Of a stretch of 64,000 nt of DNA, positions 6,514-34,975 are shown in pieces (positions within the stretch are counted from its first letter, which is position 1; every line of letters starts with the position of its first letter). The notes beneath the pieces are model-generated. The model was not told where the DNA came from. It did no database searches and was given only the letters and a program-made list of their open reading frames with translations. The DNA lies in contig CAZGMK010000003.1 of NCBI GenBank assembly GCA_964526835.1, positions 83,436 to 147,435 of the forward strand, in the 5' to 3' direction. A program made the translations under genes and the position numbers. The stretch comes from an uncultured Ignavibacteriales bacterium (GTDB lineage Bacteria; Zixibacteria; MSB-5A5; GN15; FEB-12).

Positions 6514-6515
6514 CT

Positions 6516-6535: not shown

Positions 6536-6547
6536 TTCTGAGTAAAT

Positions 6548-15913: not shown

Positions 15914-17944
15914 ATGAACCGGGCGACAGCAACTCTGGGTCGGTGGCATGAGGAGTTCCGGCGCACCAACTACCGGTACATGGTCGTGGTTGCGCTCATC
16001 ATCGGACTGGCCGGTGGGCTTTGCGCGGTTGGTTTCAGGAAACTGATCGAGGTTCTGCAGCTACTCGCCTGGTCGCAGAACCACGATCTGGTGGAACACA
16101 TACGGGCGCTGCCCTGGTACTGGAAAGTCGGCGCTCCCGGGCTTGGCGGACTGATAGTGGGTCTCATAACCTATTATACCGCGCGCGAGGCCAAGGGACA
16201 CGGGGTTCCCGAGGTCATGGAGGCGGTGGCGTTGCGCAGCAGCCGCATCAGGCCTCGAGTTGTGATCGCCAAGATGTTCGCTTCCGCAATTACCATCGCG
16301 TCCGGGGGGTCGGTGGGGCGGGAGGGACCTATCGTTCAGATCGGCTCGGCGCTCGGATCGACAATCGGTCAATGGCTGCGCGTTAACGAACGTCGCCTGA
16401 GGACCATGGTCGGTTGCGGTGCGGCAGCCGGCATCGCGGCTACATTCAATGCTCCGGTGGCCGGCGCCCTCTTTTCGCTGGAGATCATTCTAGGTGAATT
16501 CACGGTCTCGCGTTTTTCCCCGATTGTCATCTCGTCGGTAACGGCCACGGTCGTTTCGCGGCACTTTCTTGGCGACGTGCCCGCGTTCGAGGTCCCGGGC
16601 TACAGCCTGGCGAGTCCGCTGGAACTGATCGCCTATGCCGGACTCGGACTGGTGGCCGGATTGGTGGCTCTGCTGTTTGTCAACACGCTTTACCGCGTCG
16701 AGGACATTTTTGACAGCATCAACCTGTATCCACCCCTGAAGACCCTCGGCGGCGGTGTCATTATTGGTGTCATGGCGCTGGCCCTTCCGGAGATTCTCGG
16801 TGTCGGCTATGAGTCTATCAACCGGGCCCTCTCGGGCAACATGGTCCTGTGGTTCCTGGCCCTCCTCATCGTCGCGAAGATACTCGCTGTTTCAATCACG
16901 ATTGGCTCAGGCGGTTCGGGTGGCATCTTCGCCCCGTCACTGTTCATTGGAGCCATGACCGGCGGTGTCATGGGAGTTGCGGTCAATCATCTCTGGCCGG
17001 GAAGCGTTGCTGCTGTCGGGGCGTACTCGCTCGTTGGTATGGCGGCCGTCGTAGCGGCGGCGACCCATGCGCCGATTACAGCCATTCTGATTGTGTTTGA
17101 ACTCACCAACGACTATAAAATCATTTTGCCACTGATGATCAGCTGCATCATAGCCACTATCCTGGCTATGCGTCTGCAGGACCACTCGATATACACTCTG
17201 AAGCTGATTCGGCGGGGAGTGGACTTGCGGAAGGGACGTTCGGTGGACATGCTCCAGAACCTGCCGGTCAGCCGGATTATGCGCCGAGAGTTCGCTGCGG
17301 TGAACCTCGACGCTCCCTTGATGTCGATCATTTCGCGATTCGTAGAGCAGTCGGTCAATACCGTGTTTGTGCTGGACCGGAGCGGTCGGCTGGCCGGTGT
17401 TGTGACGCTGGATGAGATACGGTACCTGATGTCGGATGCGCAGGCCCTCGAAAGCCTGGCCATCGCAAAGGACATCATGACCGAACGTGGTTTCCCAGTA
17501 TTCAAGCCTGACGACAGCCTGGCAGAAGTCATGAAGCGCCTGGCCGGTCACGTACATGAGGCCCCGGTGATCGATGACGGCAGGATTGTCGGGTGCATTT
17601 GGCCCGATGACGTGATCAGACAATACAACGCCGAGGTCTTCAAGCGCGATATGGCCTCCGGCATGACGACCATGCTTGATGATGCGGCGACGGCCTACGT
17701 CCCGGGCTCAGCCGATCTGAGACTCGTCCAGGCGCCGGTGCCGCCTCACTTTGTCGGACGATCCATATCCGAGCTGGACATCCGGAAGCGGTTCGGTATT
17801 AGTGTTCTGATGATCAAGCGAAGAGAGGAAGGGCGTGAAGAATCAGTCGACGCTGCACCTGCGCCTGATACGGTCCTGCGCGACGGGGATGTCTTGCTGC
17901 TGATGGGTCCTGAGGCGCAGGTCAGACGTTTCGAAGGCGAGTAG
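15914..17944 (+). CDS. ClC-family chloride channel/antiporter with CBS pair and C-terminal RCK_C (TrkA-C) domain
   Basis: ClC selectivity motifs GSVGREGPIVQIG and GSGGIFAPSLFIG. CBS-like region spans about aa 460-590. The tail ..ISVLMIKRREEG..VLRDGDVLLLMGPEAQV is TrkA-C-like. Confidence 0.9.
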   Translation: MNRATATLGRWHEEFRRTNYRYMVVVALIIGLAGGLCAVGFRKLIEVLQLLAWSQNHDLVEHIRALPWYWKVGAPGLGGLIVGLITYYTAREAKGHGVPEVMEAVALRSSRIRPRVVIAKMFASAITIASGGSVGREGPIVQIGSALGSTIGQWLRVNERRLRTMVGCGAAAGIAATFNAPVAGALFSLEIILGEFTVSRFSPIVISSVTATVVSRHFLGDVPAFEVPGYSLASPLELIAYAGLGLVAGLVALLFVNTLYRVEDIFDSINLYPPLKTLGGGVIIGVMALALPEILGVGYESINRALSGNMVLWFLALLIVAKILAVSITIGSGGSGGIFAPSLFIGAMTGGVMGVAVNHLWPGSVAAVGAYSLVGMAAVVAAATHAPITAILIVFELTNDYKIILPLMISCIIATILAMRLQDHSIYTLKLIRRGVDLRKGRSVDMLQNLPVSRIMRREFAAVNLDAPLMSIISRFVEQSVNTVFVLDRSGRLAGVVTLDEIRYLMSDAQALESLAIAKDIMTERGFPVFKPDDSLAEVMKRLAGHVHEAPVIDDGRIVGCIWPDDVIRQYNAEVFKRDMASGMTTMLDDAATAYVPGSADLRLVQAPVPPHFVGRSISELDIRKRFGISVLMIKRREEGREESVDAAPAPDTVLRDGDVLLLMGPEAQVRRFEGE

Positions 17945-18802
17945 TCTTCGCCGGTCCGCAGAAGCCGCACCGGGGGAGGCGGCTGCAAGTCGGAGAACTC
18001 GGGCGACCTCTTCGGCCGAGGATCGTCGCAGGTCCGGATCGCGGGCCAGCAGGATAGTGAGCAGGTCGATTAGCTCCTGTTCTCTCAGATCGTCCATTTG
18101 CGGCGGAGTGGCTTCGATGCATCGGCTGCACACATGCAGCGGATCGTCCTCAGGTGACAGGATAAAGGGGTGACGGCCGGACAGGGTCTCCCAGGCCATC
18201 ACTCCGAAAGCGAATAAGTCGGATCGAATTGAGCAATGGCCATTAAGGATCGTCTCGGGCGCCATATAGCCCACCGTACCGAGGCCGGCCCGATATTGTT
18301 CAGGCTCGTCGGTACGCAGTCCATAGGCGAAGTCTGCGAGACGAATTCGAAAGGTGCGGCCCGCCCTGTCGCGGGGAGAATCCTCGGATATGTATACATT
18401 GGCGGGTTTCAGATCGCCGTGGATGATACCCGCCCGATGGACGACTGCCAGGCTCTCCGCCAGCCCGCTCAACATTTTGAGACGGTGGTTACGGTCTGCG
18501 AGTTTGACGGCGTAGTCCCAGCGTACGCCGCCCCATTCCATCTCTATCCAGGGCCGGAGACCCGGCGCGTATCGGATCACTCGCACCGCAACCGAACGGG
18601 GTAGAGCGGAAGAAAGGAACACCTCACGGACAACAAGCCTGTCGAATTCCGCTATCGCCTCGGGCGTGCGTCCGGTTGGAGTCTTGATTACAGTGGGATC
18701 GCCTCGGGAAGCGCAGCAGGTCAGCCATACGGACTTGGCGTGATCCCGGTATAGCAGGTGCGACGCCCCTGCGACCGAAGATTGGGGCGCGGATGTTGTC
18801 AC
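17843..18802 (-). CDS. Ser/Thr protein kinase (Hanks type, atypical N-lobe)
   Basis: Catalytic loop HRAGIIHGDLKPANVYI, DFA (DFG-like), and GTVGYMAPE. The GTG start overlaps the upstream kinase stop (GTGA). The 3' 102 nt overlap the convergent ClC gene. Confidence 0.8.
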   Translation of the reverse strand: MTTSAPQSSVAGASHLLYRDHAKSVWLTCCASRGDPTVIKTPTGRTPEAIAEFDRLVVREVFLSSALPRSVAVRVIRYAPGLRPWIEMEWGGVRWDYAVKLADRNHRLKMLSGLAESLAVVHRAGIIHGDLKPANVYISEDSPRDRAGRTFRIRLADFAYGLRTDEPEQYRAGLGTVGYMAPETILNGHCSIRSDLFAFGVMAWETLSGRHPFILSPEDDPLHVCSRCIEATPPQMDDLREQELIDLLTILLARDPDLRRSSAEEVARVLRLAAASPGAASADRRRLLAFETSDLRLRTHQQQDIPVAQDRIRRRCSVD

Positions 18803-20610
18803 TCTTCACTCTTGGGCTGACGGGGTCGCAGGCGCGGCAGGCTTATCATGAAGGATGTCCCCTCTCCCGGCTGCGAATCAACGTCTATCACGCCGCGGTG
18901 CAGTTTGACTGTCCGCTGGCAACTATGCAGCCCGGCGCCATGACCACCCCTTTTGGTCGTGAAATGGAGGTTGAAGATCTTGTCGATCGTTTCCGGGGCT
19001 ATGCCGATGCCGTTGTCGGAAATGGTCAGGGCAATGCGCTCACGGCTCTTGTCGTAGGTCGTCTCGATAGTTACTTCAGCTTCGTAATCGTTGCCCATTT
19101 CCTGTTCTACGATAGACCGTTCTCTGATCGCCTCGGCGGCGTTGGTCAATAGGTGAGTCAGCATCTGCTGAATCTGCGCCACATCAATTTCCGCGTTGGG
19201 CAGATCGGGGTCGTAATCCAGATTGAACCGGATACTCCGGAACCGGGGTTGAGTGCGTAATGAGAATAACAGGTCCTCAACCAGATGGCGGATATCGTAA
19301 CTGATGAATTCGGGATCCGGCCGGGAGAAATCTATGAGGTTATGAACAAACTGCTTGACCCTGTCAATGTTGCCCTGGATTGTCTGGGCATTGTATCGCA
19401 CTTTGTCCCACTGTTCACGATCGAGGTTCTGTTCAATTAGCTCGGCGTTGTTGGCGATCACGGCCAGATTGTTATTCAGCTCGTGGGCGATCGATGCCGC
19501 CATTTCGCCCTTTGCGGCCAGCTTCTCGGAGACGATGAAGTACTTCTCCATCAGTACCTTATCACTAATGTCCTCAAGTGATACTATAATGCCGGGTCGG
19601 TCGGTCGGCAGCCAATCAAGCGGCGTCATATTCACCGACAAGACCTTCTCGAGATACCCTGTATTGTGGTAGAAGCGGGGATCCGCAAACTCGCTTCCGC
19701 TGGTCAAACAGGTGGTCAGCATATGTCGCCAGCGCGGACGTTCTGATGGAGGCAGCAGCGTTATTAGCGAATCGGCCTCTTCCGCCTCGCCTGCCGTTTG
19801 TATCTCGTCCCGATTCCAATCCATGATCTGCAGCGCCACGCGGTTGACGGCCACCAGTCGAGCTTGCTCATCGACGACCAGAGCGCCAATAGGCAACTGC
19901 TCGAGGATTCTCTCAGAGAATGACCGTAGGCGCCGCATTGAGGCGAAGGCTCGGGCATTGCGCAAGGCGGCACCGACCAGGATTGAATACAGTTCCAGCA
20001 GATATAGATCCGATCGCAGAAACATCCGCGAATTGCTGGAGTTATCCAGATAGATAACACCGACAACCCGGGAGCGATCCCGGATAGGGACGCAGATGAT
20101 CGAGCGCAAATGCAGTTCTCGGACTGATGCCCGGCGCGAGTAGCGCTCATCCGACATGGCGTCTGAGCAGTACACGGGTTCACCTGTGGCCGCTACTTGC
20201 GCAGTAACCGAACCGGAGATTCGGTGCTCGTCTTCGTTCAGTTTCTCGTTGGAAAGGTTATAGCTGCTGTGAACCTCCAGGTCACCGTCATCATTGACCA
20301 GCATGACGAGGCCTCGCTCGGCATGCATCAGATCGACCGCCTGGCGCATGATGGCCTGCGAGACTCGGTCGAGTCTCAGAGAGGAATTGACTGCGAGCGC
20401 CGCCTGCAACAGGCCGCGCAGGTTGGACAGGTGACCTTGATCCGGGGTGCCAGTATCCTGGCCCGGGAGTCGAGACCCGGCTATCTGTTCGAGAATCCGG
20501 TCGAATTCGGCCAGGGCGTGACCTACTGCTTCATCGTCTATGGCAGTGTCGGGGCCGGCGCCGTAAGAACCATCCAGAGGTCGTCGAGAATGGGCGGTTG
20601 TCCTGCTCAA
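18799..20610 (-). CDS. Cytoplasmic sensor histidine kinase (GAF-PAS-HisKA-HATPase_c)
   Basis: H-box AASIAHELNNNLAVIANN, N-box LLTNAAEAI, and G-boxes DNGIGI / TTKRGGHGAGL. No TM segments. TTG start. Confidence 0.9.
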   Translation of the reverse strand: MSRTTAHSRRPLDGSYGAGPDTAIDDEAVGHALAEFDRILEQIAGSRLPGQDTGTPDQGHLSNLRGLLQAALAVNSSLRLDRVSQAIMRQAVDLMHAERGLVMLVNDDGDLEVHSSYNLSNEKLNEDEHRISGSVTAQVAATGEPVYCSDAMSDERYSRRASVRELHLRSIICVPIRDRSRVVGVIYLDNSSNSRMFLRSDLYLLELYSILVGAALRNARAFASMRRLRSFSERILEQLPIGALVVDEQARLVAVNRVALQIMDWNRDEIQTAGEAEEADSLITLLPPSERPRWRHMLTTCLTSGSEFADPRFYHNTGYLEKVLSVNMTPLDWLPTDRPGIIVSLEDISDKVLMEKYFIVSEKLAAKGEMAASIAHELNNNLAVIANNAELIEQNLDREQWDKVRYNAQTIQGNIDRVKQFVHNLIDFSRPDPEFISYDIRHLVEDLLFSLRTQPRFRSIRFNLDYDPDLPNAEIDVAQIQQMLTHLLTNAAEAIRERSIVEQEMGNDYEAEVTIETTYDKSRERIALTISDNGIGIAPETIDKIFNLHFTTKRGGHGAGLHSCQRTVKLHRGVIDVDSQPGEGTSFMISLPRLRPRQPKSEE

Positions 20611-20716
20611 GGTCCCTCCATTTCGGGCAACTCTATCTATTGAATTGTATCGGGAAGTGGTCGCGCCCGATGAGTGAACGGCGGTGCTGCGGCCCCATTT
20701 TTCGGGGGGAAAGAGC

Positions 20717-21349
20717 CTATTCTGATCGAATATCGGACAGACGAAACTGGCTGGTCTGGAACTTGAATCGTTCGCGCCCGTAACCGGTCAGACGCAGGAA
20801 CTGGTCGAACATCCACGCCAGTTCAGATTGGCTGTCCGAGGCAGTCGAGCCGTCGGTCGCCTCATTCAACGCCGTCAGCCATACCGTCTCGACCTCGACC
20901 TGCATGAAGTAACGGCTCTTCGAATCAAGGCCGGATTCGTCGCGAAGAATCACCACTACCGAATCGGCCAAAAACCGATGAACGGCCGCCATCGATTTCA
21001 GGACATACGTGGTTTCACCTGACTCCATGGTCGTTGATGATACTTCAAAAGTCTTGGTGGTAAGTGAATAAGAGAGTATATGTGAAGCATTGCTTGATAT
21101 CTCAAGGCTGCTCCCCCAAAGACGTCTCGGCCTTCGCAGCTCAATCCTGATGTCGCAACGCAGAGCCACGCCGTCTTCCAGGCGATTCGCCCGCTCGGCG
21201 GTCAGCAGCATCGACAGGTCGACCTGCACTCTCAGGCTGTCACCCTCATACACCGGAGTCACCGACGGCTCATTGCTCTGCTGAGCCCCGACAGCAACTG
21301 CCAGTCCGATAACCGCAAGGATGGTACTGATGGTCCGGCGCGGCATCAT
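20717..21349 (-). CDS. Exported protein, DUF4390-like
   Basis: Signal peptide MMPRRTISTILAVIGLAVAVGA. The core ..IELRRPRRLWGSSLEISSNASHILSYSLTTKTFEV.. matches my recollection of the DUF4390 pattern, a family usually found next to NtrY/NtrX-type systems. Confidence 0.45.
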   Translation of the reverse strand: MMPRRTISTILAVIGLAVAVGAQQSNEPSVTPVYEGDSLRVQVDLSMLLTAERANRLEDGVALRCDIRIELRRPRRLWGSSLEISSNASHILSYSLTTKTFEVSSTTMESGETTYVLKSMAAVHRFLADSVVVILRDESGLDSKSRYFMQVEVETVWLTALNEATDGSTASDSQSELAWMFDQFLRLTGYGRERFKFQTSQFRLSDIRSE

Positions 21350-21385
21350 AAATCAGGGTTCCCTCAAGCCGCCTCTCGATCGGGA

Positions 21386-23137
21386 TCAGAAAACGTGTTC
21401 AAGTCGCACGTATATCATAGCGCCGTCGTCATCGGAACCGTCCAGTCGGCGGCTGACATTCAGACGGAATCCATCGCCCAGGAACAGGCCCACGCCGAGC
21501 GAGTGCTTGACCTCGGCCTCAGTGTCAAGCGGGACCTCATTGGCGATCTGACCCACATCCCAGAACAGCGCGGCAGCCAGGTCGGTCCGCGGGAAACGCA
21601 CCCGATATTCCATGTTAGCCATCCAGAATTCGGTCCCCAAGTACTCTTTGTGCTCATAGCCTCGAAGCGTGCCCAGCCCTCCAATGAAGAACCGCTTGTG
21701 CATCGGTACCTGTCTGTCGCTACCGCCATAGACAGCCCGCATGATCAGCATGGATCGTTGGTGTATCCTCTGGTACCGGCGCAGGTTCACCATGTATCGG
21801 CCGTAATCATAGTCGGATTTCAGGTCCGGGCTGGAGTATTCGAAATCGCCGCTAATGTGCCACGACGAACGACGAAATGGGTCGTCCCCGCGGCGAGTAT
21901 CGAAGTCTATCCGCAACCGCAGCCCGGCGTTCTCCAGTGAGTCTATACTCCTTATCCCGGGGTTGCGCAGGCTGCTGTCCACGGTTGAAAAGTTGTGGCT
22001 GAATTTCTTACTGCCCCCGAAAAGCGACCAGAGGTTTCTGTGGGCGCCGAGCCATTTCGTCTCTTCCCAGAAATACCCCGCCTCGAACCGCAGGTTGCTC
22101 AGAGGTCGCGAGACCAGCCCTACTTCGGCGCCCTCGGATTCGTAGTAGTCCTTGAAGTCTTCTTTGGCCAGCAGAGCGAAGACAGTGTTCTCCTTGGTGT
22201 TAAGCAACCAGTCATCCTCGGATGCCAGGTGGCGACCATAGCGGCCTTTGATGGCCAGCGGAAATCCTCGGAGCAGGGTTTGCTCGAGGCCAACTTCGAA
22301 GCGCCAGCGTTCGGAGGCAAAGGCATAACCCGCCCGCCCCCATACAGACGGCAACAGCGAGTCCTGATCGTGGTACTCAACTCCCTCCTGCAAATATAAG
22401 CCGTCTACCCGATTGTAGGCCAGCCGGAAACAGTCGTCGAACTCTGTCTCCTGCCGCTTCAATTCGCGGCGAGCCTTAATGCGGCGGCGCTCGGCGGTGT
22501 ACATCTCGCCGTAAACAGCGGCGTCCCTGGCGACGTCGATCCGGCCATTGATGGTTGCAATGTCGCCTCGGGCCACGGCTTCCGGGCCGACATAGATTTC
22601 GCCGAACAGCGATACTATATCGCCGTTAACCTCGCCGTACGCTTCGACATCGCCGGTCACCGTGAACACCATCCCCCGAACGAACTGATCCTCAGCAACG
22701 ATGACTGGCTGGTTATAGGTCTTCACATTGCCGCTCAGCAATCGCTGGACGCGGCTGGTGGTATCGCTGTGAGTAAGGCAGGTGATCGTGACGAACTCAT
22801 CGCGGTCCATGACTCTTATGTCGTGTACTCGATTCCATGAGACAACCTGCGGTCCGACATGGGCGCCGTCGGCATCAAACAGCACCTGGCCGCCGACCCA
22901 TACCGTCCCGTCCGGTGAGACCTTAATCGCATCGCGATCCACCTCGGTTTGCTGCGCCACCGCATCGAGAAAGCTCTCAACCCTTACCAGCGTCTTGCTG
23001 AATGTGATCTGCATCACCGTCCGTATGTTCGCCTCGCGGCGGAATGGCTTGTAAGGCTCTTCCTGCGCCACCGCTATGGTGCAACTCAGGATCAGGATCA
23101 GCAGCCCCATGAGGGCGATAGGATACTTACTTCGCAT
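21386..23137 (-). CDS. Outer-membrane Omp85/D15-type beta-barrel protein with N-terminal bactofilin-like beta-helix region and no recognisable POTRA
   Basis: Signal peptide. The stretch VTGDVEAYGEVNGDIVSLFGEIYVGPEAVARGDIATINGRIDVARDAAVYGEMY is a polymer-forming cytoskeletal type repeat. C-terminal barrel motifs FFIGGLGTLRGY and terminal ..IYVRLEHVF. ATG 23137 is preceded by GGAGG; the TTG at 23140 is one codon upstream. Confidence 0.7.
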   Translation of the reverse strand: MRSKYPIALMGLLILILSCTIAVAQEEPYKPFRREANIRTVMQITFSKTLVRVESFLDAVAQQTEVDRDAIKVSPDGTVWVGGQVLFDADGAHVGPQVVSWNRVHDIRVMDRDEFVTITCLTHSDTTSRVQRLLSGNVKTYNQPVIVAEDQFVRGMVFTVTGDVEAYGEVNGDIVSLFGEIYVGPEAVARGDIATINGRIDVARDAAVYGEMYTAERRRIKARRELKRQETEFDDCFRLAYNRVDGLYLQEGVEYHDQDSLLPSVWGRAGYAFASERWRFEVGLEQTLLRGFPLAIKGRYGRHLASEDDWLLNTKENTVFALLAKEDFKDYYESEGAEVGLVSRPLSNLRFEAGYFWEETKWLGAHRNLWSLFGGSKKFSHNFSTVDSSLRNPGIRSIDSLENAGLRLRIDFDTRRGDDPFRRSSWHISGDFEYSSPDLKSDYDYGRYMVNLRRYQRIHQRSMLIMRAVYGGSDRQVPMHKRFFIGGLGTLRGYEHKEYLGTEFWMANMEYRVRFPRTDLAAALFWDVGQIANEVPLDTEAEVKHSLGVGLFLGDGFRLNVSRRLDGSDDDGAMIYVRLEHVF

Positions 23138-23164
23138 CAAGGCCTCCAGTTTTCACTGCTATAC

Positions 23165-23180
23165 AACAAACCGCATGCCA
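23165..23180 (-). promoter_or_regulatory. Candidate sigma-54 promoter (-24 TGGCATG / -12 TTGTT)
   Basis: The minus strand reads TGGCATG-CGGT-TTGTT, against my recollection of the consensus TGGCACG-N4-TTGCW. Spacing is correct, with one mismatch in each element. It lies about 25 nt upstream of the GGAGG-ATG of the OMP gene and just downstream of the sigma-54 activator gene. Confidence 0.4.
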
Positions 23181-23267
23181 GACAGTCAACATGAGATTGG
23201 TAAGGGGATAGCGGGCAATTAGGCTGCTGTGCCGTGTGATTCTGCCACGCTTGTGACCTGAATCTGT

Positions 23268-24623
23268 TCATTGGGACTTCAGCCCGAACTGTTTCACCTT
23301 GCGCGACAGATTGGCCCGGTCCACACCCAACACCCGCGCGGCCTCCGAGATGTTCCCGTTGCACCGGTCGAGCGTCTGTGAGATCAGGAGACGCTCGAAG
23401 GCTTCAAGTCGGCTGGACAAGGAATCCCCATCAGGAGGCATCTGCTCCCCAACGGATTCCCGCGGCGATGCCGGAGTCAACTGGGCGGCGAGTTCACGCA
23501 GCCCAATCCGGCGTCCCGGATAGATGATTGAGAGGCGCTCTACGACATTTTTGAGTTGACGAACATTGCCCGGCCACCGGACTGTCATCAGGTGGGCCAG
23601 CGCCTCGGGAGAGAGACTGGTCGACCCGCTGGGGTCGAAGCGGCGGAGAAACTCAGCCACAAGTATCGGGATGTCCTCCCTGCGGTTGTCCAGCGAGGGA
23701 ACCTGAATATGGAAGACGGAGACGCGATAGTACAGGTCCTGGCGGAACTTCCCCTCGGCCAGAAGCGTGTCGAGATTCCGATTGGTGGCGCAGATCACGC
23801 GGACATCAACGATATTGGTCTCGGCGGCCCCCAGGGTTTCGACCTCACCCGTCTCCAGGACTCTCAGGAGTTTCGCCTGGCAGGGCGACGGGAGATCCCC
23901 GATCTCATCCAGGAGCAACGTACCGCCGTCCGCCAGCATGAACTTGCCCGGATAGTCTTTCACGGCCCCGGTAAACGCGCCCTTGCGATGGCCGAACAGC
24001 TCTGATTCGAACAAGGTCTGGGGAATACCCGGGCAGTTGACCCGGATGAGTGGTTTGTCGCGTCGGATACTCTGCAGATGCAAACGAGTTGCAACCAGTT
24101 CCTTCCCGGTTCCGTTGGGGCCGGTGATAAGAACCGACGCATCGGACGGAGCGGCCTGTTCGATTTCCCGGAGTAACTTCTGCATGGCCGGGCTGTTGCC
24201 TGTGAGGCGGCATTGTTCGTCCGCCTGATCGGCCATGACTGTCCGGTGGCGGCGCGCCGTTGTCAGCAGCAGGCACGATCGCACGGTCGCAAGGAGACGT
24301 TCGGGTGTCACCGGCTTCTCCAGATAGTCCAGGGCTCCCAGCTTGAGCGCTTCCAGTGCCGTGCCCACCTCAGATTGGCCCGAAACCACGAGATACTCCG
24401 GGGCGCCGAGGCCCGTCTGAGATCGCAACAGGTCAAGGCCCGATTCTCCGGGAAAGCTGAGGTCGAGCAGCACCAGGTCGAACGGCTGTCGTCTTATCAT
24501 CTCGGAGGCCTGCCGCACACTGCCGGCCGTATCGGTGCGATAGCCTTCGCCTTTCAGCAGGGAGGCGAGACTGCGGGTTACTGATGCCTCGTCGTCGACA
24601 ATCAGAATTCGCTCTCTACTCAC
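23268..24623 (-). CDS. Sigma-54-dependent response regulator (REC - AAA+ - Fis-type HTH; NtrC/NtrX family)
   Basis: REC domain with ILIVDDE..DLVLLDL. Walker A GPNGTGKE. GAFTGA loop present (KGAFTGA). ESELFGH. C-terminal HTH ..NISEAARVLGVDRANLSRKVK. Confidence 0.92.
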   Translation of the reverse strand: MSRERILIVDDEASVTRSLASLLKGEGYRTDTAGSVRQASEMIRRQPFDLVLLDLSFPGESGLDLLRSQTGLGAPEYLVVSGQSEVGTALEALKLGALDYLEKPVTPERLLATVRSCLLLTTARRHRTVMADQADEQCRLTGNSPAMQKLLREIEQAAPSDASVLITGPNGTGKELVATRLHLQSIRRDKPLIRVNCPGIPQTLFESELFGHRKGAFTGAVKDYPGKFMLADGGTLLLDEIGDLPSPCQAKLLRVLETGEVETLGAAETNIVDVRVICATNRNLDTLLAEGKFRQDLYYRVSVFHIQVPSLDNRREDIPILVAEFLRRFDPSGSTSLSPEALAHLMTVRWPGNVRQLKNVVERLSIIYPGRRIGLRELAAQLTPASPRESVGEQMPPDGDSLSSRLEAFERLLISQTLDRCNGNISEAARVLGVDRANLSRKVKQFGLKSQ

Positions 24624-26079
24624 CGTACTCCTCCGCGAGAGGAATAACTAGCCTGACAGTTGTACCGACCCGGGGTTCGCTCTCAATGTCCAGACGTCCT
24701 CCACAGTCGGCGGCAACTCTTTCGACCAGGGCCAGCCCCAGGCCACTGCCGCGTTCCCTGGTCGTGAAGTAGGGAAGACGCGCCGAAGCCATCTGGCCGG
24801 CGTTCATCCCCTGGCCCTGGTCCTTGACCTCAATGATCGCCTGTCCCAATGAGTTCACGGTCAGAGACAACTCGATGCCTCGGCCCTCAGGAGTCGCTTC
24901 CCGGGCGTTCTTCAACAGATTGTGTATAGCTTCGCGCAGGTAACTCACGTCGACCTGAGCGTATACCGGCTCATTCGGAACGGAGAGGCCGAAATCATGG
25001 CCGGTCATGCGTTCCCGGTACAGATGTGCGATGGAGCGGAGCAACTCAGACAGATCCTCGCGTCTCGGTTCTGGATCGGGCATCCTGGACAGGGCGGAAA
25101 ATCGTTCGGCCAGGTGGGTGAGATGGCTGATTTCCTCATCTATCGCCGATACCAACTCATTGATGCGACCGGGGTCAGCGCCCTCTTGCACGGCCTTTCG
25201 AATCTGATACAGCGATACTGCGACCGGTTGCAGGGGATTTCTGAGTTCGTGAGCGAAGCGTTTGGCGATTCCGCGCCAGGCAGCCACTCGCTCGCTTTGG
25301 CTGAGGCGCCTGGTAAGGTCATCCAACTGCTGCGCCATACGATTCACGCTCTCCACCAGGACCGCAACTTCGCCACTGGCGTCAGCATGTACGCGCCTCG
25401 CGAAGTCTCCCCTGGCGATGTCGTTCACCACTTCTGTGGTGGCGGCGATCGGGTCGGCAAGGCGAGCGCTGGTGCGCCGTGAAAACACTGTCGCGACGAT
25501 GGCGGCCGCGAGAAGCACCAGGCCGAGGAGGATTGCGACAAAGGCGAAGTAGTAACCTCCGCGCTCGGTGCTCTCTCTGGCCCGCCGATGCGATTGCTCG
25601 AACAGTTGGATGGCCTGCTGGTAGGACCGAGGGTGGATCTTGGCAGCGCAGAGAAGATCGAGCAGGGAGTCCTGTCGGCAGACTATCTGGGCTGGGCCGC
25701 TGGATGTCACACGCCAATGTGTGGATGGCCCCAGCGTCGTCACGTCGATCTCCCGAAGCAAGGCAGGCACCGGGTACGCCGCTGCGCTGATAATTGTCAG
25801 GGAGTCACCATCAACAGAGAATATTGCGTCGACTGGACCCATGTCTCCGGTTGAGAGATGACGATCCGGCGAAATGGCCCTGGTGAGTCGTTGCTCTGCG
25901 TCTGCCTGCTGGTACTCCAGCAGCGTCATGAAAGCTCTGTCGATGCTACCGACGTTGTCTTCTCGTAAGCCGAATGACCCAGCCGCCAGCCACAGCGCCA
26001 CCAGCGCCATGATTGTGGCGGGCGCCAGCGAGAACAGAAGGAAGAGTCGAAGCAGGCGGTGGCGGAAGGTCATGCCCAT
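24616..26079 (-). CDS. Membrane sensor histidine kinase (2 TM - HAMP - HisKA - HATPase_c)
   Basis: H-box RFAHELRNPLQPV, N-box HNLLKNAREA, and G-boxes DQGQGM / GSGLGLALV. I chose the start at ATG 26079, 13 nt after the Nudix stop. The longer ORF to 26220 would overlap the Nudix gene. Confidence 0.85.
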   Translation of the reverse strand: MGMTFRHRLLRLFLLFSLAPATIMALVALWLAAGSFGLREDNVGSIDRAFMTLLEYQQADAEQRLTRAISPDRHLSTGDMGPVDAIFSVDGDSLTIISAAAYPVPALLREIDVTTLGPSTHWRVTSSGPAQIVCRQDSLLDLLCAAKIHPRSYQQAIQLFEQSHRRARESTERGGYYFAFVAILLGLVLLAAAIVATVFSRRTSARLADPIAATTEVVNDIARGDFARRVHADASGEVAVLVESVNRMAQQLDDLTRRLSQSERVAAWRGIAKRFAHELRNPLQPVAVSLYQIRKAVQEGADPGRINELVSAIDEEISHLTHLAERFSALSRMPDPEPRREDLSELLRSIAHLYRERMTGHDFGLSVPNEPVYAQVDVSYLREAIHNLLKNAREATPEGRGIELSLTVNSLGQAIIEVKDQGQGMNAGQMASARLPYFTTRERGSGLGLALVERVAADCGGRLDIESEPRVGTTVRLVIPLAEEYGE

Positions 26080-26092
26080 AGTCGCATTCAAG

Positions 26093-26659
26093 TCACGAGC
26101 GATATCGCTCGCAGTACTCTCTGATCGCCTGGATGTGCGCTTTGAAGGCGATCCGATCGGGAATTTCATCGAAGCCGAAGAAGCGTACTTCCTCTGCGTC
26201 ATCGGCAGCCCGCAATTCACCGCCGACCTTCTTGCCCAGATAGAGGATGAGCACGGCGTTTGCCCGGGGATCGTCCTGCCCCGAATAGACTTCGAACAGA
26301 CCGGTCAGCTCGATGTCCAGACCGGTCTCTTCGGCCAGCTCGCGTACTGCTGTCTGACGAGGGTTTTCCTCCCACTCCATGAAACCCGCCGGAATACACC
26401 ACCAGCCGATCCGCGGGGGATGGGCTCTCTTGACCAACAGTAACTTGTCGTCCTCGACTACTATCACTCCCGCCGCCGGAATCGGGTTCTGATAGAAGAC
26501 ATATCCGCAGGATCGGTTGGTGCAGACCATTCGCGGCCGGCCGTCGAGGTCACGTTCCTCCAGCTCGGTCCGACACTTCGGACAGTAGGTATAACCCAGA
26601 TGATGATCCTTCAGCGCCATCATTTCATCGACATCGAAATCATCATGCCTTTTGTTCAT
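26093..26659 (-). CDS. Nudix hydrolase with N-terminal zinc ribbon
   Basis: CPKC..(17)..CTNRSC zinc ribbon. Nudix box GWWCIPAGFMEWEENPRQTAVRELAEETGL. The start overlaps the PP2C gene end by 17 nt. Confidence 0.85.
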   Translation of the reverse strand: MNKRHDDFDVDEMMALKDHHLGYTYCPKCRTELEERDLDGRPRMVCTNRSCGYVFYQNPIPAAGVIVVEDDKLLLVKRAHPPRIGWWCIPAGFMEWEENPRQTAVRELAEETGLDIELTGLFEVYSGQDDPRANAVLILYLGKKVGGELRAADDAEEVRFFGFDEIPDRIAFKAHIQAIREYCERYRS

Positions 26660-28907
26660 GAATATCCACTCCGTCAGTCAGCTTCAGGGCCACAATCGTT
26701 GTATCGTCGCGCGGCGGATCGGTTGGATCGTAGGCGCGCACGTCGGCAAGCACCCGCTTCACTAAATCGCCGGGGTCCAAATGGCGGTAATTGCGGACGA
26801 CTTCGACGATTCGTTGCTCTCCGTACTCACGCTCCTGGCTGTCCATTGCCTCAGAGAGCCCGTCGGTGAACATGAACAACACATCCCCCTTCTTAAGCTC
26901 CAGCGTGGCCGACTCGTATTCCATGAACGGAAACGCGCCTATGATCGGTCCGCCGACCTTGAGTCGCTCGACGGCGCCGTTCGCCCGGACCATAATCGGC
27001 CAGTTGTGTCCGGCGTTGGCGTAGCGCAATTGACGACTCTGCGGGTCCAGCTCAGCGTAGAAGAGCGTAACATACTTCTCCGCCGATGTAGCTTCCGTGA
27101 TCTGCTGATTGGCGCGCTTGAGCATCGCGGAAACCGGGTTTCCGTTGGACACTTCATTGCGGATAATCGCCTGCATCTGGGCGATCAGCAGTGCGGCGGG
27201 CATCCCCTTTCCCGAGGCGTCGGCAATTACGATGCCCACGCGCCCATCAGGCATCGCCAGGAAGTCGTAGAAGTCGCCGCCGACGGTTCGCGATGGAGTG
27301 GATGTCGAATGTATTCGGCCGCACGGAATAGTCGGTGGTTGCGACGGCAGCAGATCCAACTGGATCTGACGCGCCATGTTGATCTCTTCCTGAAGTCGTA
27401 AGCGCTCGAGTGATTCGACGTACAGCCGGGCGTTGGTCAGAGCCGATACCATCTGGTTGGAGAGCACCCCCAGCAGGTTTATGTCCTCCGACGAGTACCT
27501 GTAGCCGGCCGCCTTGCGAGTCAAGGCCAGGAATCCCAGGAGGTGCTCGGAATCCTTAAGCGGCAGAATCATTTTGACGCCTCGCCCTTCAAGCACCGCG
27601 GCCAAATCGGAGCCCTGACGGTACTCCGCCAGCGAATCGTAGAACGTCGGTGACTGGAGCAAGTTGATGCCCCGCAGCATCAAGTCCTCGCGGTCGATAA
27701 CATAACGACGCGGATAGTCCTCGGACGGCAGCAGCGCATACTCCTCGAGCTCGTCGTCGTACATGCAGAAGTATACTTGATCGACCAGCAGCGTGGTCTT
27801 GAGAGTGTCCTCGATCGTGCTTCGGAGTCGGGAAGGGTTGAACACCGAGATCACCTGGCGAGAGAACCGTTCGAGTACGTTGCGGTGATCGGCTCGGCTG
27901 CGAATGAACATCGTCTTGATCATATCATCCAGCCAGTTGCTGATTGGCTGAAACATCAGCAACATAACAATGATCAGGCCGTAGCTGACCATATCGGCTC
28001 TGTTGCCGAAGACCGGTTGCAGCATGTCGCGGGCCTGTACCACCAGCAGTATGTAGGTCCCGACGAGTATGGCTGATGTGACGGTTGTCACGAACGACTG
28101 GCGGAAGACCATCTGCACATCGAGAAACTGATGGCGGATCGTCGCCAGCACAAAGAGGGTTGCTCCGACCAAGAGGCCGAGTACCATCAGCACGGCCCCC
28201 GAATCCTTCCCTATGATGTTGGGTACCAGCCAATGCCCGGCGAGGCCAACCACGAAGAAGCCCAGGCCGACACGAATGCCCCATAGTACCCAGCGGGCCT
28301 GGATGCGAATACTGGGATTGGTGACTTGATCGGCTCCGCTTTCGAGGAAGAACACGGCTGCGCCGACATAGGCAAGGTTGATCAGGCCGAAGACCGTCGC
28401 CTGGTAGGTCCGTATCGCCCCGATGGCCAGGCTCAGCCAGGCCGTCAGTTTATTCAGGGGTTCGACTACCAGCGACAGCAGCCCCGACTCGACGGAGTCG
28501 AGAGAGAGACTGTCGAGGGCGCTGATGATTTCCGGGGCAAATAGCACGATCAGTATATGAAACAGGGGGGGGAGGAAGATCAAGTATCGCCAGCGGCTGT
28601 GACCAAGGCTCCTCAGCCGGTCGACCGGATAAGCCAGGGCAAACAGAAGAAGGCAGGGGAAAAAGAACTCCCAGGCGTGCCGCAGGTTGTACAGCGCCGA
28701 GTTATAGAAACTCGCATCCTCACCTCCCTGCAGGGCGAACTCGCCCAGGGCCATCGCCACCGGACCAAGGCCGGAGAAGAACAACATCGTCCCGGTGATT
28801 CTGTTGAGGCGATTGGCGAAGTTGTCCCGGGTGATCGTAATGGCCAGGAAGATCAGGAACCCGCCGGCAAGCAGGTACCCAACCGCTATGAGCTGATCGG
28901 CACTCAT
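26643..28907 (-). CDS. Polytopic membrane sensor - GAF - PP2C (SpoIIE/RsbU-type) phosphatase
   Basis: About 320 aa of TM helices, then a GAF-like region, then PP2C motifs GGDFYDF, IADASGKGMPAALL and FTDGLSEA. Confidence 0.85.
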   Translation of the reverse strand: MSADQLIAVGYLLAGGFLIFLAITITRDNFANRLNRITGTMLFFSGLGPVAMALGEFALQGGEDASFYNSALYNLRHAWEFFFPCLLLFALAYPVDRLRSLGHSRWRYLIFLPPLFHILIVLFAPEIISALDSLSLDSVESGLLSLVVEPLNKLTAWLSLAIGAIRTYQATVFGLINLAYVGAAVFFLESGADQVTNPSIRIQARWVLWGIRVGLGFFVVGLAGHWLVPNIIGKDSGAVLMVLGLLVGATLFVLATIRHQFLDVQMVFRQSFVTTVTSAILVGTYILLVVQARDMLQPVFGNRADMVSYGLIIVMLLMFQPISNWLDDMIKTMFIRSRADHRNVLERFSRQVISVFNPSRLRSTIEDTLKTTLLVDQVYFCMYDDELEEYALLPSEDYPRRYVIDREDLMLRGINLLQSPTFYDSLAEYRQGSDLAAVLEGRGVKMILPLKDSEHLLGFLALTRKAAGYRYSSEDINLLGVLSNQMVSALTNARLYVESLERLRLQEEINMARQIQLDLLPSQPPTIPCGRIHSTSTPSRTVGGDFYDFLAMPDGRVGIVIADASGKGMPAALLIAQMQAIIRNEVSNGNPVSAMLKRANQQITEATSAEKYVTLFYAELDPQSRQLRYANAGHNWPIMVRANGAVERLKVGGPIIGAFPFMEYESATLELKKGDVLFMFTDGLSEAMDSQEREYGEQRIVEVVRNYRHLDPGDLVKRVLADVRAYDPTDPPRDDTTIVALKLTDGVDIHEQKA

Positions 28908-28935
28908 GGACTATTGCCGCTTCACAACAGCGAGA

Positions 28936-29358
28936 CTACTTGATTGTTTTGCGAATAGTTACAGTAGTGCCATCCTCGGACGGCTCGATATCCACCTCGT
29001 CCATCAGCGAGCGCACAATGAAAATACCCCGTCCGACGTCTTTCAGCAGGTTCTCGTCGCTGATGGGATCATCAACCTCATCCGGGTTGAAACCGGTTCC
29101 CCTGTCGCGAACCGTAATAATGGCCTGATTATCTTGCCTGGTCACGTTCACCTCAACCGGTGTCTCGCCCGCAGCCCGGTTGCCGTGAAAGATGGCGTTA
29201 TTGACCAATTCGGAAACAGATATCGCAATGTCGGCGATGACCGACTCCGACGCACTCCATCCCCGCAGCAGCCCCTCCACGAACATGTCCACGTCGGTCA
29301 GGAACTTCTGGTCGGAGGGCACCACAATCGTATCGCCTTTGATTACCGGCTTGTCCAT
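28936..29358 (-). CDS. Anti-sigma-factor-type Ser kinase (RsbW/SpoIIAB-like, HATPase_c_2)
   Basis: N-box SELVNNAIFHGN and G-box VRDRGTGF. I preferred ATG 29358 (GAGG upstream); an alternative GTG lies at 29403. Confidence 0.75.
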   Translation of the reverse strand: MDKPVIKGDTIVVPSDQKFLTDVDMFVEGLLRGWSASESVIADIAISVSELVNNAIFHGNRAAGETPVEVNVTRQDNQAIITVRDRGTGFNPDEVDDPISDENLLKDVGRGIFIVRSLMDEVDIEPSEDGTTVTIRKTIK

Positions 29359-29441
29359 ATAGCTGGCCTCGATTGCAGGAAAGGCAGGTTGCCTTCCAGC
29401 CACCTGCCGTATTCAGTGTCTAGTACAGGCGCCCGTATCGG

Positions 29442-29780
29442 CTATTCGAACGACTCAACGGCGTCTTCAACGGAATCGTAAGCCTCAAACACACCGACCA
29501 GCTTCGTGATCGTCAAGAGCGACTGGATCTTCTCGGTGATTCGGGCCAGTTTGAGCTTGCCGTCGCTGTTACGAAGCGTGGTATAGCCCTGAATCAGAAT
29601 CCCGAGTCCGGTCGAGTTCATCCATTCGACCCCGGCCAAATCGATGATCACCTTCTTCTTATCCGCCTTGATGCACTCGTACAGCTTGTCGTGCAGAAGA
29701 CTGGCATCCGGGCCACCCATGATTTTACCCTCGGGCTGCAGAATCACGATGCCACTCTCCTCACGGTAGTTCAATTTCAT
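29442..29780 (-). CDS. STAS-domain anti-anti-sigma factor (RsbV/SpoIIAA-like)
   Basis: 112 aa. ..VIIDLAGVEWMNSTGLGILI.. contains the conserved phosphorylatable Ser context. Confidence 0.85.
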   Translation of the reverse strand: MKLNYREESGIVILQPEGKIMGGPDASLLHDKLYECIKADKKKVIIDLAGVEWMNSTGLGILIQGYTTLRNSDGKLKLARITEKIQSLLTITKLVGVFEAYDSVEDAVESFE

Positions 29781-30030
29781 ACCGCATACGCCTCCGCTGT
29801 CGGCCTGTTATCGCTTTCTCTTACGCGCCACATTCAATCTGTGTTTCCGCAAAGAGGCTCCTGTAGTGTCTTCATCCGGCTTGCCCTCACCGGCTGGCGG
29901 GCCGGATTCACGCAGGCACGAAGTAACCCCACAATTACCCGTACCGAGAGTCGCAAGTCAAGGTCTTTCTCGTCTTGCGCGTGCGGTAAGGTGTTAATTC
30001 ATAAGGGGTTCCGCTTTGGCGGCAAGAGAA

Positions 30031-30061: not shown

Positions 30062-30526
30062 TCAGTCAATGTTGTGCGTCAGCTTGCCTGCCTGCTCACG
30101 GCGTGAGGTAGGTTTGGCCGGACGATAGTCCAGGGCCTTGGTGGGGCAGAAGTGCGCGCACACCGGATCGCCCCCGCAGAGGTCGCACTTGACCATCATG
30201 TCGTGCTGGCTGTCGTATAAGGTACAGCCGAACGGACAGGCGGCCTCACAGGCGCGACACTTGACGCACTTGTCCTGATCCAGTTCGATGGCCCCGGTTT
30301 CCTCGTTGCGCGACAGGGCGTCAACCAGGCACGATTTGACACACGCCGGATCATCGCAATGCAGACAGACCACTGGAGTATAAAGGTCCTTCGCACCGCC
30401 GGGCAGGGGATAGATACGGCTGCGGCTGGGTTTATTGCCGATCTGGTGGGCGAAAGCGCATGCCAACTCACACGTGCGGCATCCGATACACAGGCTCGGG
30501 ATAACCATGAGACGTGACTTGATCAC
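30062..30526 (-). CDS. CooF/DmsB-like polyferredoxin (four Cys clusters)
   Basis: Cys motifs CIGCRTCELAC, CLHCDDPACVKSC, CVKCRACEAACP and CDLCGG..CAHFCP. The GTG start at 30526 is preceded by GAGGAGG and overlaps the upstream stop (GTGA). The longer ORF to 30601 is unlikely. Confidence 0.8.
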   Translation of the reverse strand: MIKSRLMVIPSLCIGCRTCELACAFAHQIGNKPSRSRIYPLPGGAKDLYTPVVCLHCDDPACVKSCLVDALSRNEETGAIELDQDKCVKCRACEAACPFGCTLYDSQHDMMVKCDLCGGDPVCAHFCPTKALDYRPAKPTSRREQAGKLTHNID

Positions 30527-31308
30527 GACGTCACCTCCTCGTCGCTTCGGCTCCACCTGACAATGCTGCCCATCCTCAGGGAAATCTCCTTTCGATGACA
30601 CTCATCACAGATATCGAAGTACTCTCGCGGTATATTGCGCATCTTGCTCAGCGTGTCGGCGAAAGCTTCAGTGATAGTCAATTTGCCGCACTTGTGGCAC
30701 TTGATGCGATTGAATTGCTTGCCCCAGATGGTTCGGGTATCGCCCGAGTCTTCGTACTCTATGAAGTTCGTCGGGCAATTTTCGGCGCAGCTCAAACAGC
30801 CGACGCAGTCCGGCGGCGCCTGCTTCAAAGGGGGCGCCACTTCGCGACCGTGACCTCGGTCGACCATGCTGATCGCGTGGAAGCCGAGGGTGTCACAGAT
30901 GCGGGTGCAGATGGCGCACAGGATGCAATTGTCGCCGTCGGGAATCGTCTCGTAGCTGGTCTGGGTGACTCCATACTCGGCCGCCAGCTTGCGAATCTGC
31001 GTTGAGTTCGGACAGCGTGCCAGTTGCAGATCGAGCACCTGTCGCCTCAGTTCGTCGACTTCTTCGGTGTGGGTCCGGACAATCAAGCCGTCCTCGACCG
31101 GATACAGACATGATGTCACGTGCTTGACCCAGCCGTCCCATTCCCTCCGCGTGATCTCCACCATGCAGAGACGGCAGGCTCCGTATGGCTCCACCGCGTC
31201 GTGATGGCAGAGCGCCGGTACATCAATGCCCATCCGCTTGATCACGGCCAGGAGCATTTCGCCTTCTTTGGCTTCGGTTGCGCGTCCATTTATAGTGAGT
31301 TTAACCAT
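30523..31308 (-). CDS. HoxU / NuoG-N-terminal-like iron-sulfur protein ([2Fe-2S] plus 2x[4Fe-4S], no catalytic domain)
   Basis: N-terminal MVKLTINGR..LCHHD..GACRLCMVEI is a Fer2_4-type domain. Followed by CILCAICTRIC and CVGCLSCAENCP. There is an additional CHKC...CDEC pair at the C-terminus. Confidence 0.75.
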   Translation of the reverse strand: MVKLTINGRATEAKEGEMLLAVIKRMGIDVPALCHHDAVEPYGACRLCMVEITRREWDGWVKHVTSCLYPVEDGLIVRTHTEEVDELRRQVLDLQLARCPNSTQIRKLAAEYGVTQTSYETIPDGDNCILCAICTRICDTLGFHAISMVDRGHGREVAPPLKQAPPDCVGCLSCAENCPTNFIEYEDSGDTRTIWGKQFNRIKCHKCGKLTITEAFADTLSKMRNIPREYFDICDECHRKEISLRMGSIVRWSRSDEEVTS

Positions 31309-31319
31309 GCCGACTTCTC

Positions 31320-34967: not shown

Positions 34968-34975
34968 AGGACACC

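Follow-up and report, generated by a model that had tools for sequence, protein, structure and literature searches.

Gene content and conservation of the array

The window considered here is a stretch of 64,000 nucleotides (nt) from contig CAZGMK010000003.1, whose source genome is a member of the candidate phylum Zixibacteria. Over about 12 kb its minus strand carries ten consecutive genes which encode, in order, a STAS protein, an RsbW-like kinase, a membrane-GAF-PP2C phosphatase, a Nudix protein, a histidine kinase (HK1), a response regulator with a sigma-54 activation domain (RR54), an Omp85-like barrel protein, a DUF4390 protein, a second histidine kinase (HK2) and a Ser/Thr kinase. All ten open reading frames (ORFs) lie where an earlier reading of the same DNA, here called the initial annotation, had placed them, and the ORF check and Pfam agree with the order and domains that it gave. 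Domains were assigned with Pfam profiles and their cut-offs, equivalog-level names were sought in NCBIfam, and transmembrane segments were counted by a hydropathy scan. NCBIfam gave no equivalog-level name for any of the ten proteins, and only its STAS superfamily model scored above cut-off. On balance, the run is probably a phylum-conserved supercluster of three signalling modules, each with its own transcription signals, and not one operon or circuit. Module A is STAS-RsbW-PP2C-Nudix, module B is HK1-RR54-barrel-DUF4390 and module C is HK2-Ser/Thr kinase.

The array was compared across 80 genomic loci, taken with 10-kb flanks, that were collected via alignment of barrel-protein homologues and onto which the window proteins were mapped by tblastn. 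The gene order is shared with about 70 related genomes across Zixibacteria, in which NuoF/Fer genes are followed by the genes for STAS, RsbW, PP2C, Nudix, HK1, RR54, barrel, DUF4390, HK2 and Ser/Thr kinase at 36-55% protein identity. The initial annotation had proposed a synteny check of the whole array in relatives, and conservation across the phylum proved to be strong. Since a convergent CLC channel gene and a DAO gene beyond the array are equally syntenic, on other strands, conserved order alone is no proof of a functional unit.

A short form of the array is missing HK1, RR54 and DUF4390 together, so that STAS-RsbW-PP2C-Nudix-barrel-HK2-kinase remain. The kinase/activator pair and DUF4390 are both present in 32 loci and both absent from 21, with two loci discordant and one unresolved. 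Further genomes are without the Ser/Thr kinase, and in these HK2 is shortened or much more divergent; since HK2 varies in form with the presence or absence of the Ser/Thr kinase, the two act as a pair in evolution. In one complete genome the break falls exactly between RR54 and the barrel promoter, and what is retained is a 45-aa helix-turn-helix (HTH) remnant, the intergenic region, barrel, DUF4390 and a short HK2. Eisenbacteria have a tight cassette of histidine kinase, RR54, barrel-only protein and DUF4390 without modules A or C. The four genes of module A are contiguous in every locus covering them, and the barrel gene always lies between modules A and C.

The spacing of the genes follows the same divisions. 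The junctions measured in the initial annotation were correct, namely a 17-nt overlap for PP2C/Nudix, a 13-nt gap for Nudix/HK1, an 8-nt overlap for HK1/RR54 and a 4-nt GTGA overlap for HK2/kinase. Across loci these junctions measure -8 to -17 nt (median -8, quartiles -17 to -8), about 0 wherever HK1 is present, -7 and about 0, respectively. The description of the whole run as joined by short gaps or overlaps holds within modules; it does not hold for three larger gaps, STAS/RsbW (83 nt here, about 86 nt across loci), RR54/barrel (about 127 and about 130 nt) and DUF4390/HK2 (106 and about 108 nt), each of which carries conserved signals. The RsbW-like start conserved in relatives is the ATG at 29358, which gives a protein of 140 aa, and the STAS/RsbW gap is therefore 83 nt and not 38. 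The barrel gene starts with the ATG at 23137. For the Ser/Thr kinase we prefer the GTG start over a 232-aa gene call because relatives retain the 4-nt overlap with HK2.

Table 1. Genes of the array and sequence elements in its gaps and leader, in window coordinates
Feature	Position	Strand	Details
STAS protein	29442-29780	-	112 aa; Pfam STAS E 2.8e-15
RsbW-like kinase	ORF 28936-29403; from conserved start 28936-29358	-	HATPase_c_2 E 1.2e-25
Membrane-GAF-PP2C phosphatase	26643-28907	-	754 aa; SpoIIE/PP2C E 1e-52; GAF weak
Nudix	26093-26659	-	NUDIX E 8.4e-24, plus Zn_ribbon_Nudix
HK1	24616-26079	-	Pfam HAMP-HisKA-HATPase
RR54	23268-24623	-	Response_reg, Sigma54_activat (1.6e-65), HTH_8
Omp85-like barrel protein	ORF 21386-23140; from corrected start 21386-23137	-	Pfam Omp85 E 2.2e-12
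DUF4390 protein	20717-21349	-	PF14334 E 2.1e-10, 40.8 bits against cut-off 27
HK2	18799-20610	-	GAF-PAS-HisKA-HATPase
Ser/Thr kinase	17843-18802	-	319 aa; Pkinase E 7.9e-23
Promoter-like element P1	29925-29961	-	TTGACT (29956-29961), 18-nt spacer, TAATTG
ECF-sigma-type (extracytoplasmic function) element	29822-29848	-	GGAAAC-N17-CGTA, 42 nt upstream of STAS ATG
GC-rich hairpin between STAS and RsbW-like gene	29383-29408	-	predicted free energy (dG) in window -17.4 kcal/mol
Inverted repeat, activator-site-like	23233-23249	-	CGTGG-N7-CACACG, just past RR54 stop codon
Conserved TTGACT ahead of -24/-12 element	23184-23189	-	whole region 23165-23189
Sigma-54-type -24/-12 element	23165-23180	-	tGGCAT-N5-TTGTT, then ribosome-binding site GGAGG and ATG at 23137
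-10 part of sigma-28/FliA-type promoter upstream of HK2	20647-20654	-	CCCGATAC; sole surviving part, -35 decayed in this lineage

Candidate promoters and a terminator-like hairpin

The signals in these gaps could be detected because the region was compared across genomes. In the window alone, simple sigma-70 promoter and terminator scans and counts of canonical sigma-54 patterns gave nothing above chance, and Rfam matched no known RNA family in the window or in the STAS leader. Motif frequencies were set against a background of 2.5 Mb of sequence from the related loci.

In the gap upstream of the barrel gene, the strict form of the -24/-12 motif, tGGCA(C/T)-N5-TTGTT, has 27 matches in the 2.5 Mb, and 26 of them lie immediately upstream of the barrel gene on the same strand; a relaxed form is found in 46 loci. 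In the alignment GGCA and TG are invariant, and the G-to-G distance, 11 nt, is the usual one for -24/-12 promoters. The motif accompanies the kinase/activator pair, being present in 32 of 33 loci that have the pair and in 3 of 26 that do not, and short-form loci have ordinary TTGACA-N17-TTATGT-like sequences in its place. An inverted repeat of the form [CT]GTG[TG]-N4-10-[CA]CAC[GA] lies upstream of the GG in 36 of 45 loci scanned (background rate 0.007 per 100 nt), at a distance of 70-71 nt in 33 of these 36 and of 60, 68 and 68 nt in the others. This layout is apparently that of a classical activator-dependent sigma-54 promoter, with RR54 as the probable ligand of the repeat. The initial annotation had pointed to the barrel/DUF4390 pair as the output of the array, and with the -24/-12 motif and the repeat in front of it the pair looks like the output of the sigma-54 system. 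A sigma-70 promoter as the main reading of this region was rejected, as TTGACT combined with a downstream TAT would need a 20-nt spacer or a -10 without its key bases.

The association of the promoter with the barrel gene is kept in loci L012 (8040-9572), L009 and L011, where about 2.5-3 kb of DNA with a gene for a TIR-domain protein is inserted between RR54 and the promoter. Elsewhere in the window a second sigma-54-type element, GGCAT-N5-TTGCT (12880-12894, plus strand), has the same geometry and a canonical -12, and is kept in nine related loci. It stands about 28 nt before a gene at 12922-13695 (257 aa, HisKA domain only), and a different palindrome, GTGAAA-N4-TTTCAC, about 130 nt upstream suggests another activator. 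Since this canonical TTGCT promoter is conserved, canonical promoters of the -24/-12 class would exist in the same genomes.

Two elements precede STAS. P1 has the phylum consensus AAAAAnnCCTTGACTT-N-GCTAATTAAnnACTTAGC, with the core AAAAAnnCCTTGACTT-N18-TAATTA (alignment A4, 44 loci), and would be read by a sigma-70-type factor. Its -10 region is covered by an inverted repeat (29925-29940, minus strand), which reads GTAA-N8-TTAC here and, in the majority of loci, GCTAA-N8-TTAGC, and which resembles the operator of a dimeric regulator. The ECF-type element is the sole exact match to GGAAAC-N17-CGTA in the window. Its CGTA is nearly invariant in alignment A4 and its spacing across loci is N16/17; GGAAAC-N16/17-CGTA occurs at <=110 nt from the STAS ATG in 31 of 48 loci, compared with 50 matches elsewhere in the 2.5 Mb. 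The element is similar to the TGAAAC/CGTA of Bacillus subtilis sigW promoters (PMC5758882). A riboswitch-like RNA was considered as the reading of this conserved leader and dropped in favour of a promoter, given the fixed AAC-N16/17-CGTA spacing.

The gap after STAS holds a hairpin (dG -10 to -22 kcal/mol) and T-run in 38 of 48 loci when each sequence is folded separately, and the ribosome-binding site and ATG of the RsbW-like gene follow directly. In most relatives the hairpin looks like an intrinsic terminator. In the window the T-run has decayed to CCTTTCC, as in the nearest relatives, and the hairpin is kept. Consensus folding with RNAalifold gave no structure after STAS, the stem pairing in two registers across loci, and the 96-nt gap of the window folded alone was no better than shuffled sequences.

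Upstream of HK2 the motif across loci is tTAAg-N15-(G/T)CCGATA(A/T), which matches FliA/sigma-28 promoters when compared with those of Escherichia coli (PMC4183435). TAA-N16-18-CCGATA precedes the HK2 gene in 52 of 65 loci and has 29 matches elsewhere in the 2.5 Mb; CCGATA alone is present in 60 of the 65. The motif precedes HK2 in both the full and the short form of the array. The reference Zixibacteria genome is predicted to lack flagella (PMC3903129), so that any sigma-28-type factor would serve a function other than motility here, as it does in Chlamydia. Two more good sigma-28-type matches occur in the window on the plus strand, one (44836-44862) intergenic before a group of acyl-carrier-protein, hexapeptide-transferase and GDSL-lipase genes, and the other (39434-39461) about 200 nt before a peptidase M24 gene.

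Three of these promoter types, ECF, sigma-54 and sigma-28, would depend on alternative sigma factors, which implies that such factors are encoded elsewhere in the genome. In the window, a domain search detected a sigma factor in neither the called genes nor the larger ORFs, and rpoN does not lie in it either; the 10-kb flanks of the 80 related loci and the inserts that were inspected likewise showed no sigma factor gene. The inserts between Fer4 and STAS and between RR54 and barrel were considered as sites for such a gene, and held a TonB-dependent receptor, an unassigned protein and the TIR-domain protein instead. The absence of a sigma factor claimed in the initial annotation thus stands in cis, beside the triad and in the window; it goes no further than that, given the three alternative-sigma promoter types.

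The proteins and their known counterparts

Of the three modules, B is the best supported as a functional system, and is a coherent variant of the NtrYX/DUF4390 scheme with the barrel protein as its regulated output. HK1 has two transmembrane segments around a periplasmic loop of about 147 aa, followed by HAMP, HisKA and HATPase domains. In its AlphaFold model (predicted local distance difference test, pLDDT, 79) the loop begins with a long helix, continues with five strands and a short helix, and ends in a second long helix that enters the membrane, an order of elements that looks PDC-like, and several HK1 orthologues are labelled NtrY-type by the Joint Genome Institute. RR54 has the GAFTGA motif and a Fis-type HTH. 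The barrel protein has a signal peptide, a beta-rich domain, a beta-helix and a C-terminal Omp85-type barrel (AlphaFold model, pLDDT 80). Its likeness to BamA and TamA of the Omp85 superfamily lies in this barrel, which matches Pfam Omp85 (47.6 bits against a cut-off of 24) and the barrel of BamA in Foldseek (E 6e-14, TM-score about 0.6 on the target). It differs from them in having no POTRA domains, by Pfam or in the model, and an N-terminus made up of the beta-rich domain and the bactofilin-like beta-helix (the DUF5686 and Bactofilin matches are sub-threshold); the Eisenbacteria homologue is barrel-only, and the NCBIfam BamA and TamA scores of the window protein are all far under cut-offs. 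The DUF4390 protein has a signal peptide. In the closest relative a 91-aa gene call had raised the prospect of its decay, which was ruled out when translation revealed an intact ORF with a non-ATG start.

The DUF4390 protein belongs to the same Pfam family as PlrP of Bordetella, which on genetic evidence published in 2026 is the periplasmic third component of PlrSR, a system of the NtrYX family (PMC13001219). PlrP probably restrains the phosphatase activity of the PlrS kinase via the periplasmic PDC domain of the latter, and PlrP homologues always adjoin ntrY homologues (PMC13001219). The remark in the initial annotation that DUF4390 genes are typically neighbours of NtrY/NtrX-type systems has become the best-supported functional link of the array, given the co-variation, the Eisenbacteria cassette and the Bordetella work. 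Module B is like the PlrP-PlrS-PlrR system in that the gene for a secreted DUF4390 protein adjoins those for a membrane-bound HAMP kinase and a regulator of the NtrC/NtrX-like kind, in that the presence of DUF4390 tracks that of the kinase, in the periplasmic sensor domain of the kinase, whose modelled layout may be PDC-like, and in the apparent internal promoter of the cluster, which is not a simple operon. It differs in gene order, which is HK, RR, barrel, DUF4390 here and DUF4390, HK, RR in Bordetella, in the Omp85-like barrel gene within the Zixibacteria cassette, and in an HK1 that has no PAS domain. Moreover the regulator here has GAFTGA and an apparent sigma-54 promoter target, which would place DUF4390 under the control of its own system, and the cassette occurs in Zixibacteria and Eisenbacteria, outside Proteobacteria. 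In Eisenbacteria locus L076 (5684-6889) rlmN, an rRNA methyltransferase gene, precedes HK-RR54-barrel-DUF4390, which recalls rsmB upstream of plrP-plrSR in Bordetella.

We propose that HK1, which has a periplasmic sensor domain, phosphorylates RR54, which would bind the inverted repeat about 70 nt upstream of the -24/-12 promoter and, together with sigma-54, switch on the genes for the Omp85-like barrel and DUF4390. With the DUF4390 gene placed after the barrel gene, under what appears to be the RR54 promoter, this arrangement would create feedback: the secreted DUF4390 protein would in turn act on HK1 through its periplasmic domain, in the way suggested for PlrP and PlrS, in a loop reporting on the envelope. 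The idea of DUF4390 as a third component would now extend outside Proteobacteria. The two features new to the scheme, an Omp85-like barrel in the cassette and a DUF4390 gene under the sigma-54 control of its own system, point to a role in linking the state of the outer membrane to the inner-membrane kinase.

Module A has the makings of a partner switch. The STAS protein is single-domain and of the anti-sigma-antagonist type (TIGR00377, 61.6 bits against a cut-off of 53.45), with the loop WMNSTGLGIL, in which WMNSTGLG is invariant in 50 loci, the last two residues being IL, LL, II or IM; the conserved serine of this loop is the candidate phospho-serine. The RsbW-like protein is of the GHKL serine kinase type, with HATPase_c_2 at 90 bits (cut-off 27) and a visible N-box and DxGxG. 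Its nearest solved relatives are SenB (E 1.6e-09), the anti-sigma F factor SpoIIAB (E about 1e-8) and RsbW (E 2.3e-06), and its scores against NCBIfam equivalogs, including RsbW and SpoIIAB, are all far under cut-offs. The phosphatase has about 7-9 transmembrane segments and a SpoIIE domain of 179 bits, and its identity across the phylum is 43-65%, except in the most distant locus (L071, 33%). Its membrane and GAF part (26643-27650, minus strand, residues 200-496) shows weak similarity (E 2.7e-6) to the sensor region of the PEP-CTERM/XrtA system kinase PrsK. The Nudix protein has an intact Nudix box and is among the most conserved proteins of the block, with 60-84% identity across the phylum; the overlap of its gene with the PP2C stop is conserved across loci. 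Its closest solved structure is an uncharacterised Zn-ribbon Nudix protein, 3cng, and the best 120 matches in a homologue search were all within-phylum orthologues.

The likeness to the RsbU-RsbV-RsbW and SpoIIE-SpoIIAA-SpoIIAB switches of Bacillus lies in the STAS protein with its conserved serine, in the small GHKL kinase with SpoIIAB and RsbW among its solved relatives, and in the PP2C phosphatase, which is of the SpoIIE Pfam family and has an N-terminal sensor region. Unlike the Bacillus switches, module A has no sigma gene in cis, a polytopic phosphatase with GAF, a translationally coupled Nudix gene, a conserved terminator-like hairpin between STAS and kinase, and a promoter that looks ECF-type and not sigB-type or sigF-type. 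Switches that lack a neighbouring sigma gene are known in the RsbU/V/W proteins of Chlamydia (PMC11619594), HsbR-HsbA of Pseudomonas (PMC6482189) and other STAS-only proteins (PMC8256260). With these the module shares a triad placed away from any sigma gene, whose output is a distant sigma factor or a non-sigma partner; the Chlamydia switch coexists with sigma-54 and a non-flagellar sigma-28. All of them differ from module A in having no coupled Nudix hydrolase and no conserved surroundings made up of an NtrYX-like cassette and a pair of histidine and Ser/Thr kinases.

By analogy, the PP2C phosphatase would dephosphorylate STAS at the conserved serine and the RsbW-like kinase would rephosphorylate it, with the Nudix protein probably produced by translational coupling to the phosphatase. 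The terminator-like hairpin would set the excess of STAS over the kinase, a ratio that is important in networks of this kind (PMC5207722). The partner through which the module acts would be encoded outside the array. The conserved parts of the switch are now defined as STAS, hairpin, kinase, membrane phosphatase and tightly coupled Nudix, and the alternative-sigma promoter types indicate where to look for its missing partner.

In module C, HK2 is a cytoplasmic histidine kinase, and the array encodes no response regulator dedicated to it. The Ser/Thr kinase is Hanks-type, with the catalytic lysine (in VIK), the HxD catalytic loop (HGDLKPAN) and the DFG-like aspartate (DFA) present when aligned to full-length relatives; the Pfam match covers only the C-lobe of the profile. 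The relatives are 995-1003 aa long, with a kinase domain and long TPR arrays, and overlap HK2 by 4 nt; downstream of them lie a convergent 770-aa M50/HlyD-like gene and then CLC. The window protein is a kinase domain only, with 37% identity over 241 aligned residues. Its 3' end overlaps the convergent CLC gene by 102 nt (17843-17944), so that residues 287-319 (33 codons) are antisense to CLC. Since the short kinase runs into CLC, about 5 kb has been lost here compared with relatives. In the closest relative, with a barrel protein 80% identical, the kinase is likewise short (280 aa) and stops before CLC. Between these two genomes the ratio of non-synonymous to synonymous substitution rates (dN/dS) is 0.26 for the kinase at 61% identity, compared with 0.03-0.12 and 71-91% for the other genes. 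The pattern is that of a truncated remnant whose constraint is relaxed and whose evolution is not neutral. HK2 and the Ser/Thr kinase would be read from the sigma-28-type promoter, in this genome with the kinase minus its TPR half.

Weighing of alternatives and neighbouring genes

The initial annotation had proposed that the whole array is wired as a single unit: partner switch, both histidine kinases and Ser/Thr kinase would all feed into the barrel/DUF4390 pair, and the RsbW-like kinase may have a neighbour as its target in place of a sigma factor. The comparison supports this proposal in part, and we consider a single unit very unlikely. Module A immediately precedes the HK1 or barrel gene in nearly every Zixibacteria locus, the genes from PP2C to RR54 are joined by overlaps or near-zero gaps and are probably co-transcribed, and partner switches with non-sigma outputs are known (PMC8256260, PMC6482189), all of which would suit a single unit. 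Against it, promoter-like elements before STAS, barrel and HK2 and the hairpin after STAS split the array, the modules were gained and lost independently, with module B alone in Eisenbacteria, unrelated flanking genes on other strands are just as syntenic, and the Ser/Thr kinase is truncated here and absent from many relatives. Internal promoters or terminators separating the modules had been named in the initial annotation as grounds for giving up a single unit, and conserved elements of this kind do divide the array in part. At the other extreme, the three modules could be independent neighbours in a slowly rearranging part of the chromosome, with inherited gene order and no link between A, B and C. 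This is a real possibility, if a tentative one, as the syntenic block continues on both strands into NuoF/Fer on the upstream side and CLC and DAO on the downstream side, every module has signals of its own, and losses are independent. It accounts less readily for an order that persists at 36-50% protein identity, where neutral synteny usually decays, for the near absence of a gap between Nudix and HK1, and for the invariable position of the barrel gene between modules A and C.

A third alternative keeps the switch classical in its target and moves the target away: the RsbW-like kinase would be the anti-sigma factor for a distant sigma factor, either group-3 and FliA-like or one that reads ECF promoters, driving STAS and/or HK2 with the Ser/Thr kinase. 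Such a cascade in trans would explain the conserved ECF-type motif before STAS and the textbook sigma-28-type motif before HK2, and the closest solved relatives of the kinase include SpoIIAB and RsbW. Both of these bind group-3 sigma factors. Chlamydia offers a parallel in its non-flagellar sigma-28 and an Rsb switch with no adjacent sigma gene (PMC11619594). We nevertheless regard it as unlikely, since classical switch operons have the sigma gene in cis and none was seen in the window, the flanks or the inserts, and the class of a sigma factor taken from motif resemblance is weak evidence. An elaboration that we consider quite unlikely would combine it with module B, such that a factor reading ECF promoters drives STAS, the RsbW-like kinase holds a non-flagellar FliA-like group-3 sigma factor that drives HK2 and the Ser/Thr kinase, and the NtrYX-like pair with sigma-54 drives barrel and DUF4390, which jointly report the state of the outer membrane to the kinase. 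If this were true, a single stretch of the chromosome would bring together, around the envelope, three alternative sigma factors and three phosphorylation chemistries, and this in a phylum without a cultured member.

Several observations also weigh against the supercluster of three separately transcribed modules that we favour. Each promoter and terminator in it is assigned from conservation and resemblance. Nearly all Zixibacteria have module A next to the barrel gene, and a functional link between the two may exist. At the barrel promoter, the -12 element reads TTGTT in nearly all loci, with GT and not the hallmark GC, and TTGACT lies 10 nt upstream of the -24 GG with its TT invariant in 32 aligned loci; a plain sigma-54 promoter leaves this TTGACT unexplained, and it may belong to an overlapping second promoter or be a relic -35. 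The decay of the hairpin T-run and of the sigma-28-type -35 may allow more read-through in this genome than in its relatives. Pfam finds HAMP and no PAS domain in HK1, unlike NtrY, and RR54 scores under the NCBIfam equivalog cut-offs for both NtrX (335.9 bits against 600) and NtrC (383.9 against 558.6). Finally, the loci behind the co-variation counts are not phylogenetically independent, and a small number of ancient events could account for the pattern.

The candidate promoters of four classes described above amount to a regulatory map, the first for Zixibacteria, a phylum of which no representative has been cultured. Around the array, the window contains a complex I (nuo) operon (1-8000) and a polysaccharide-type cluster (48000-63000) of glycosyltransferase, Wzy_C and CapK-like genes with one for a 1372-aa secreted protein. 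Directly upstream of STAS lies a 2-oxoacid:ferredoxin oxidoreductase set with NuoE/NuoF-like and Fer2/Fer4 genes (30062-36118, minus strand), which is syntenic in most Zixibacteria loci.

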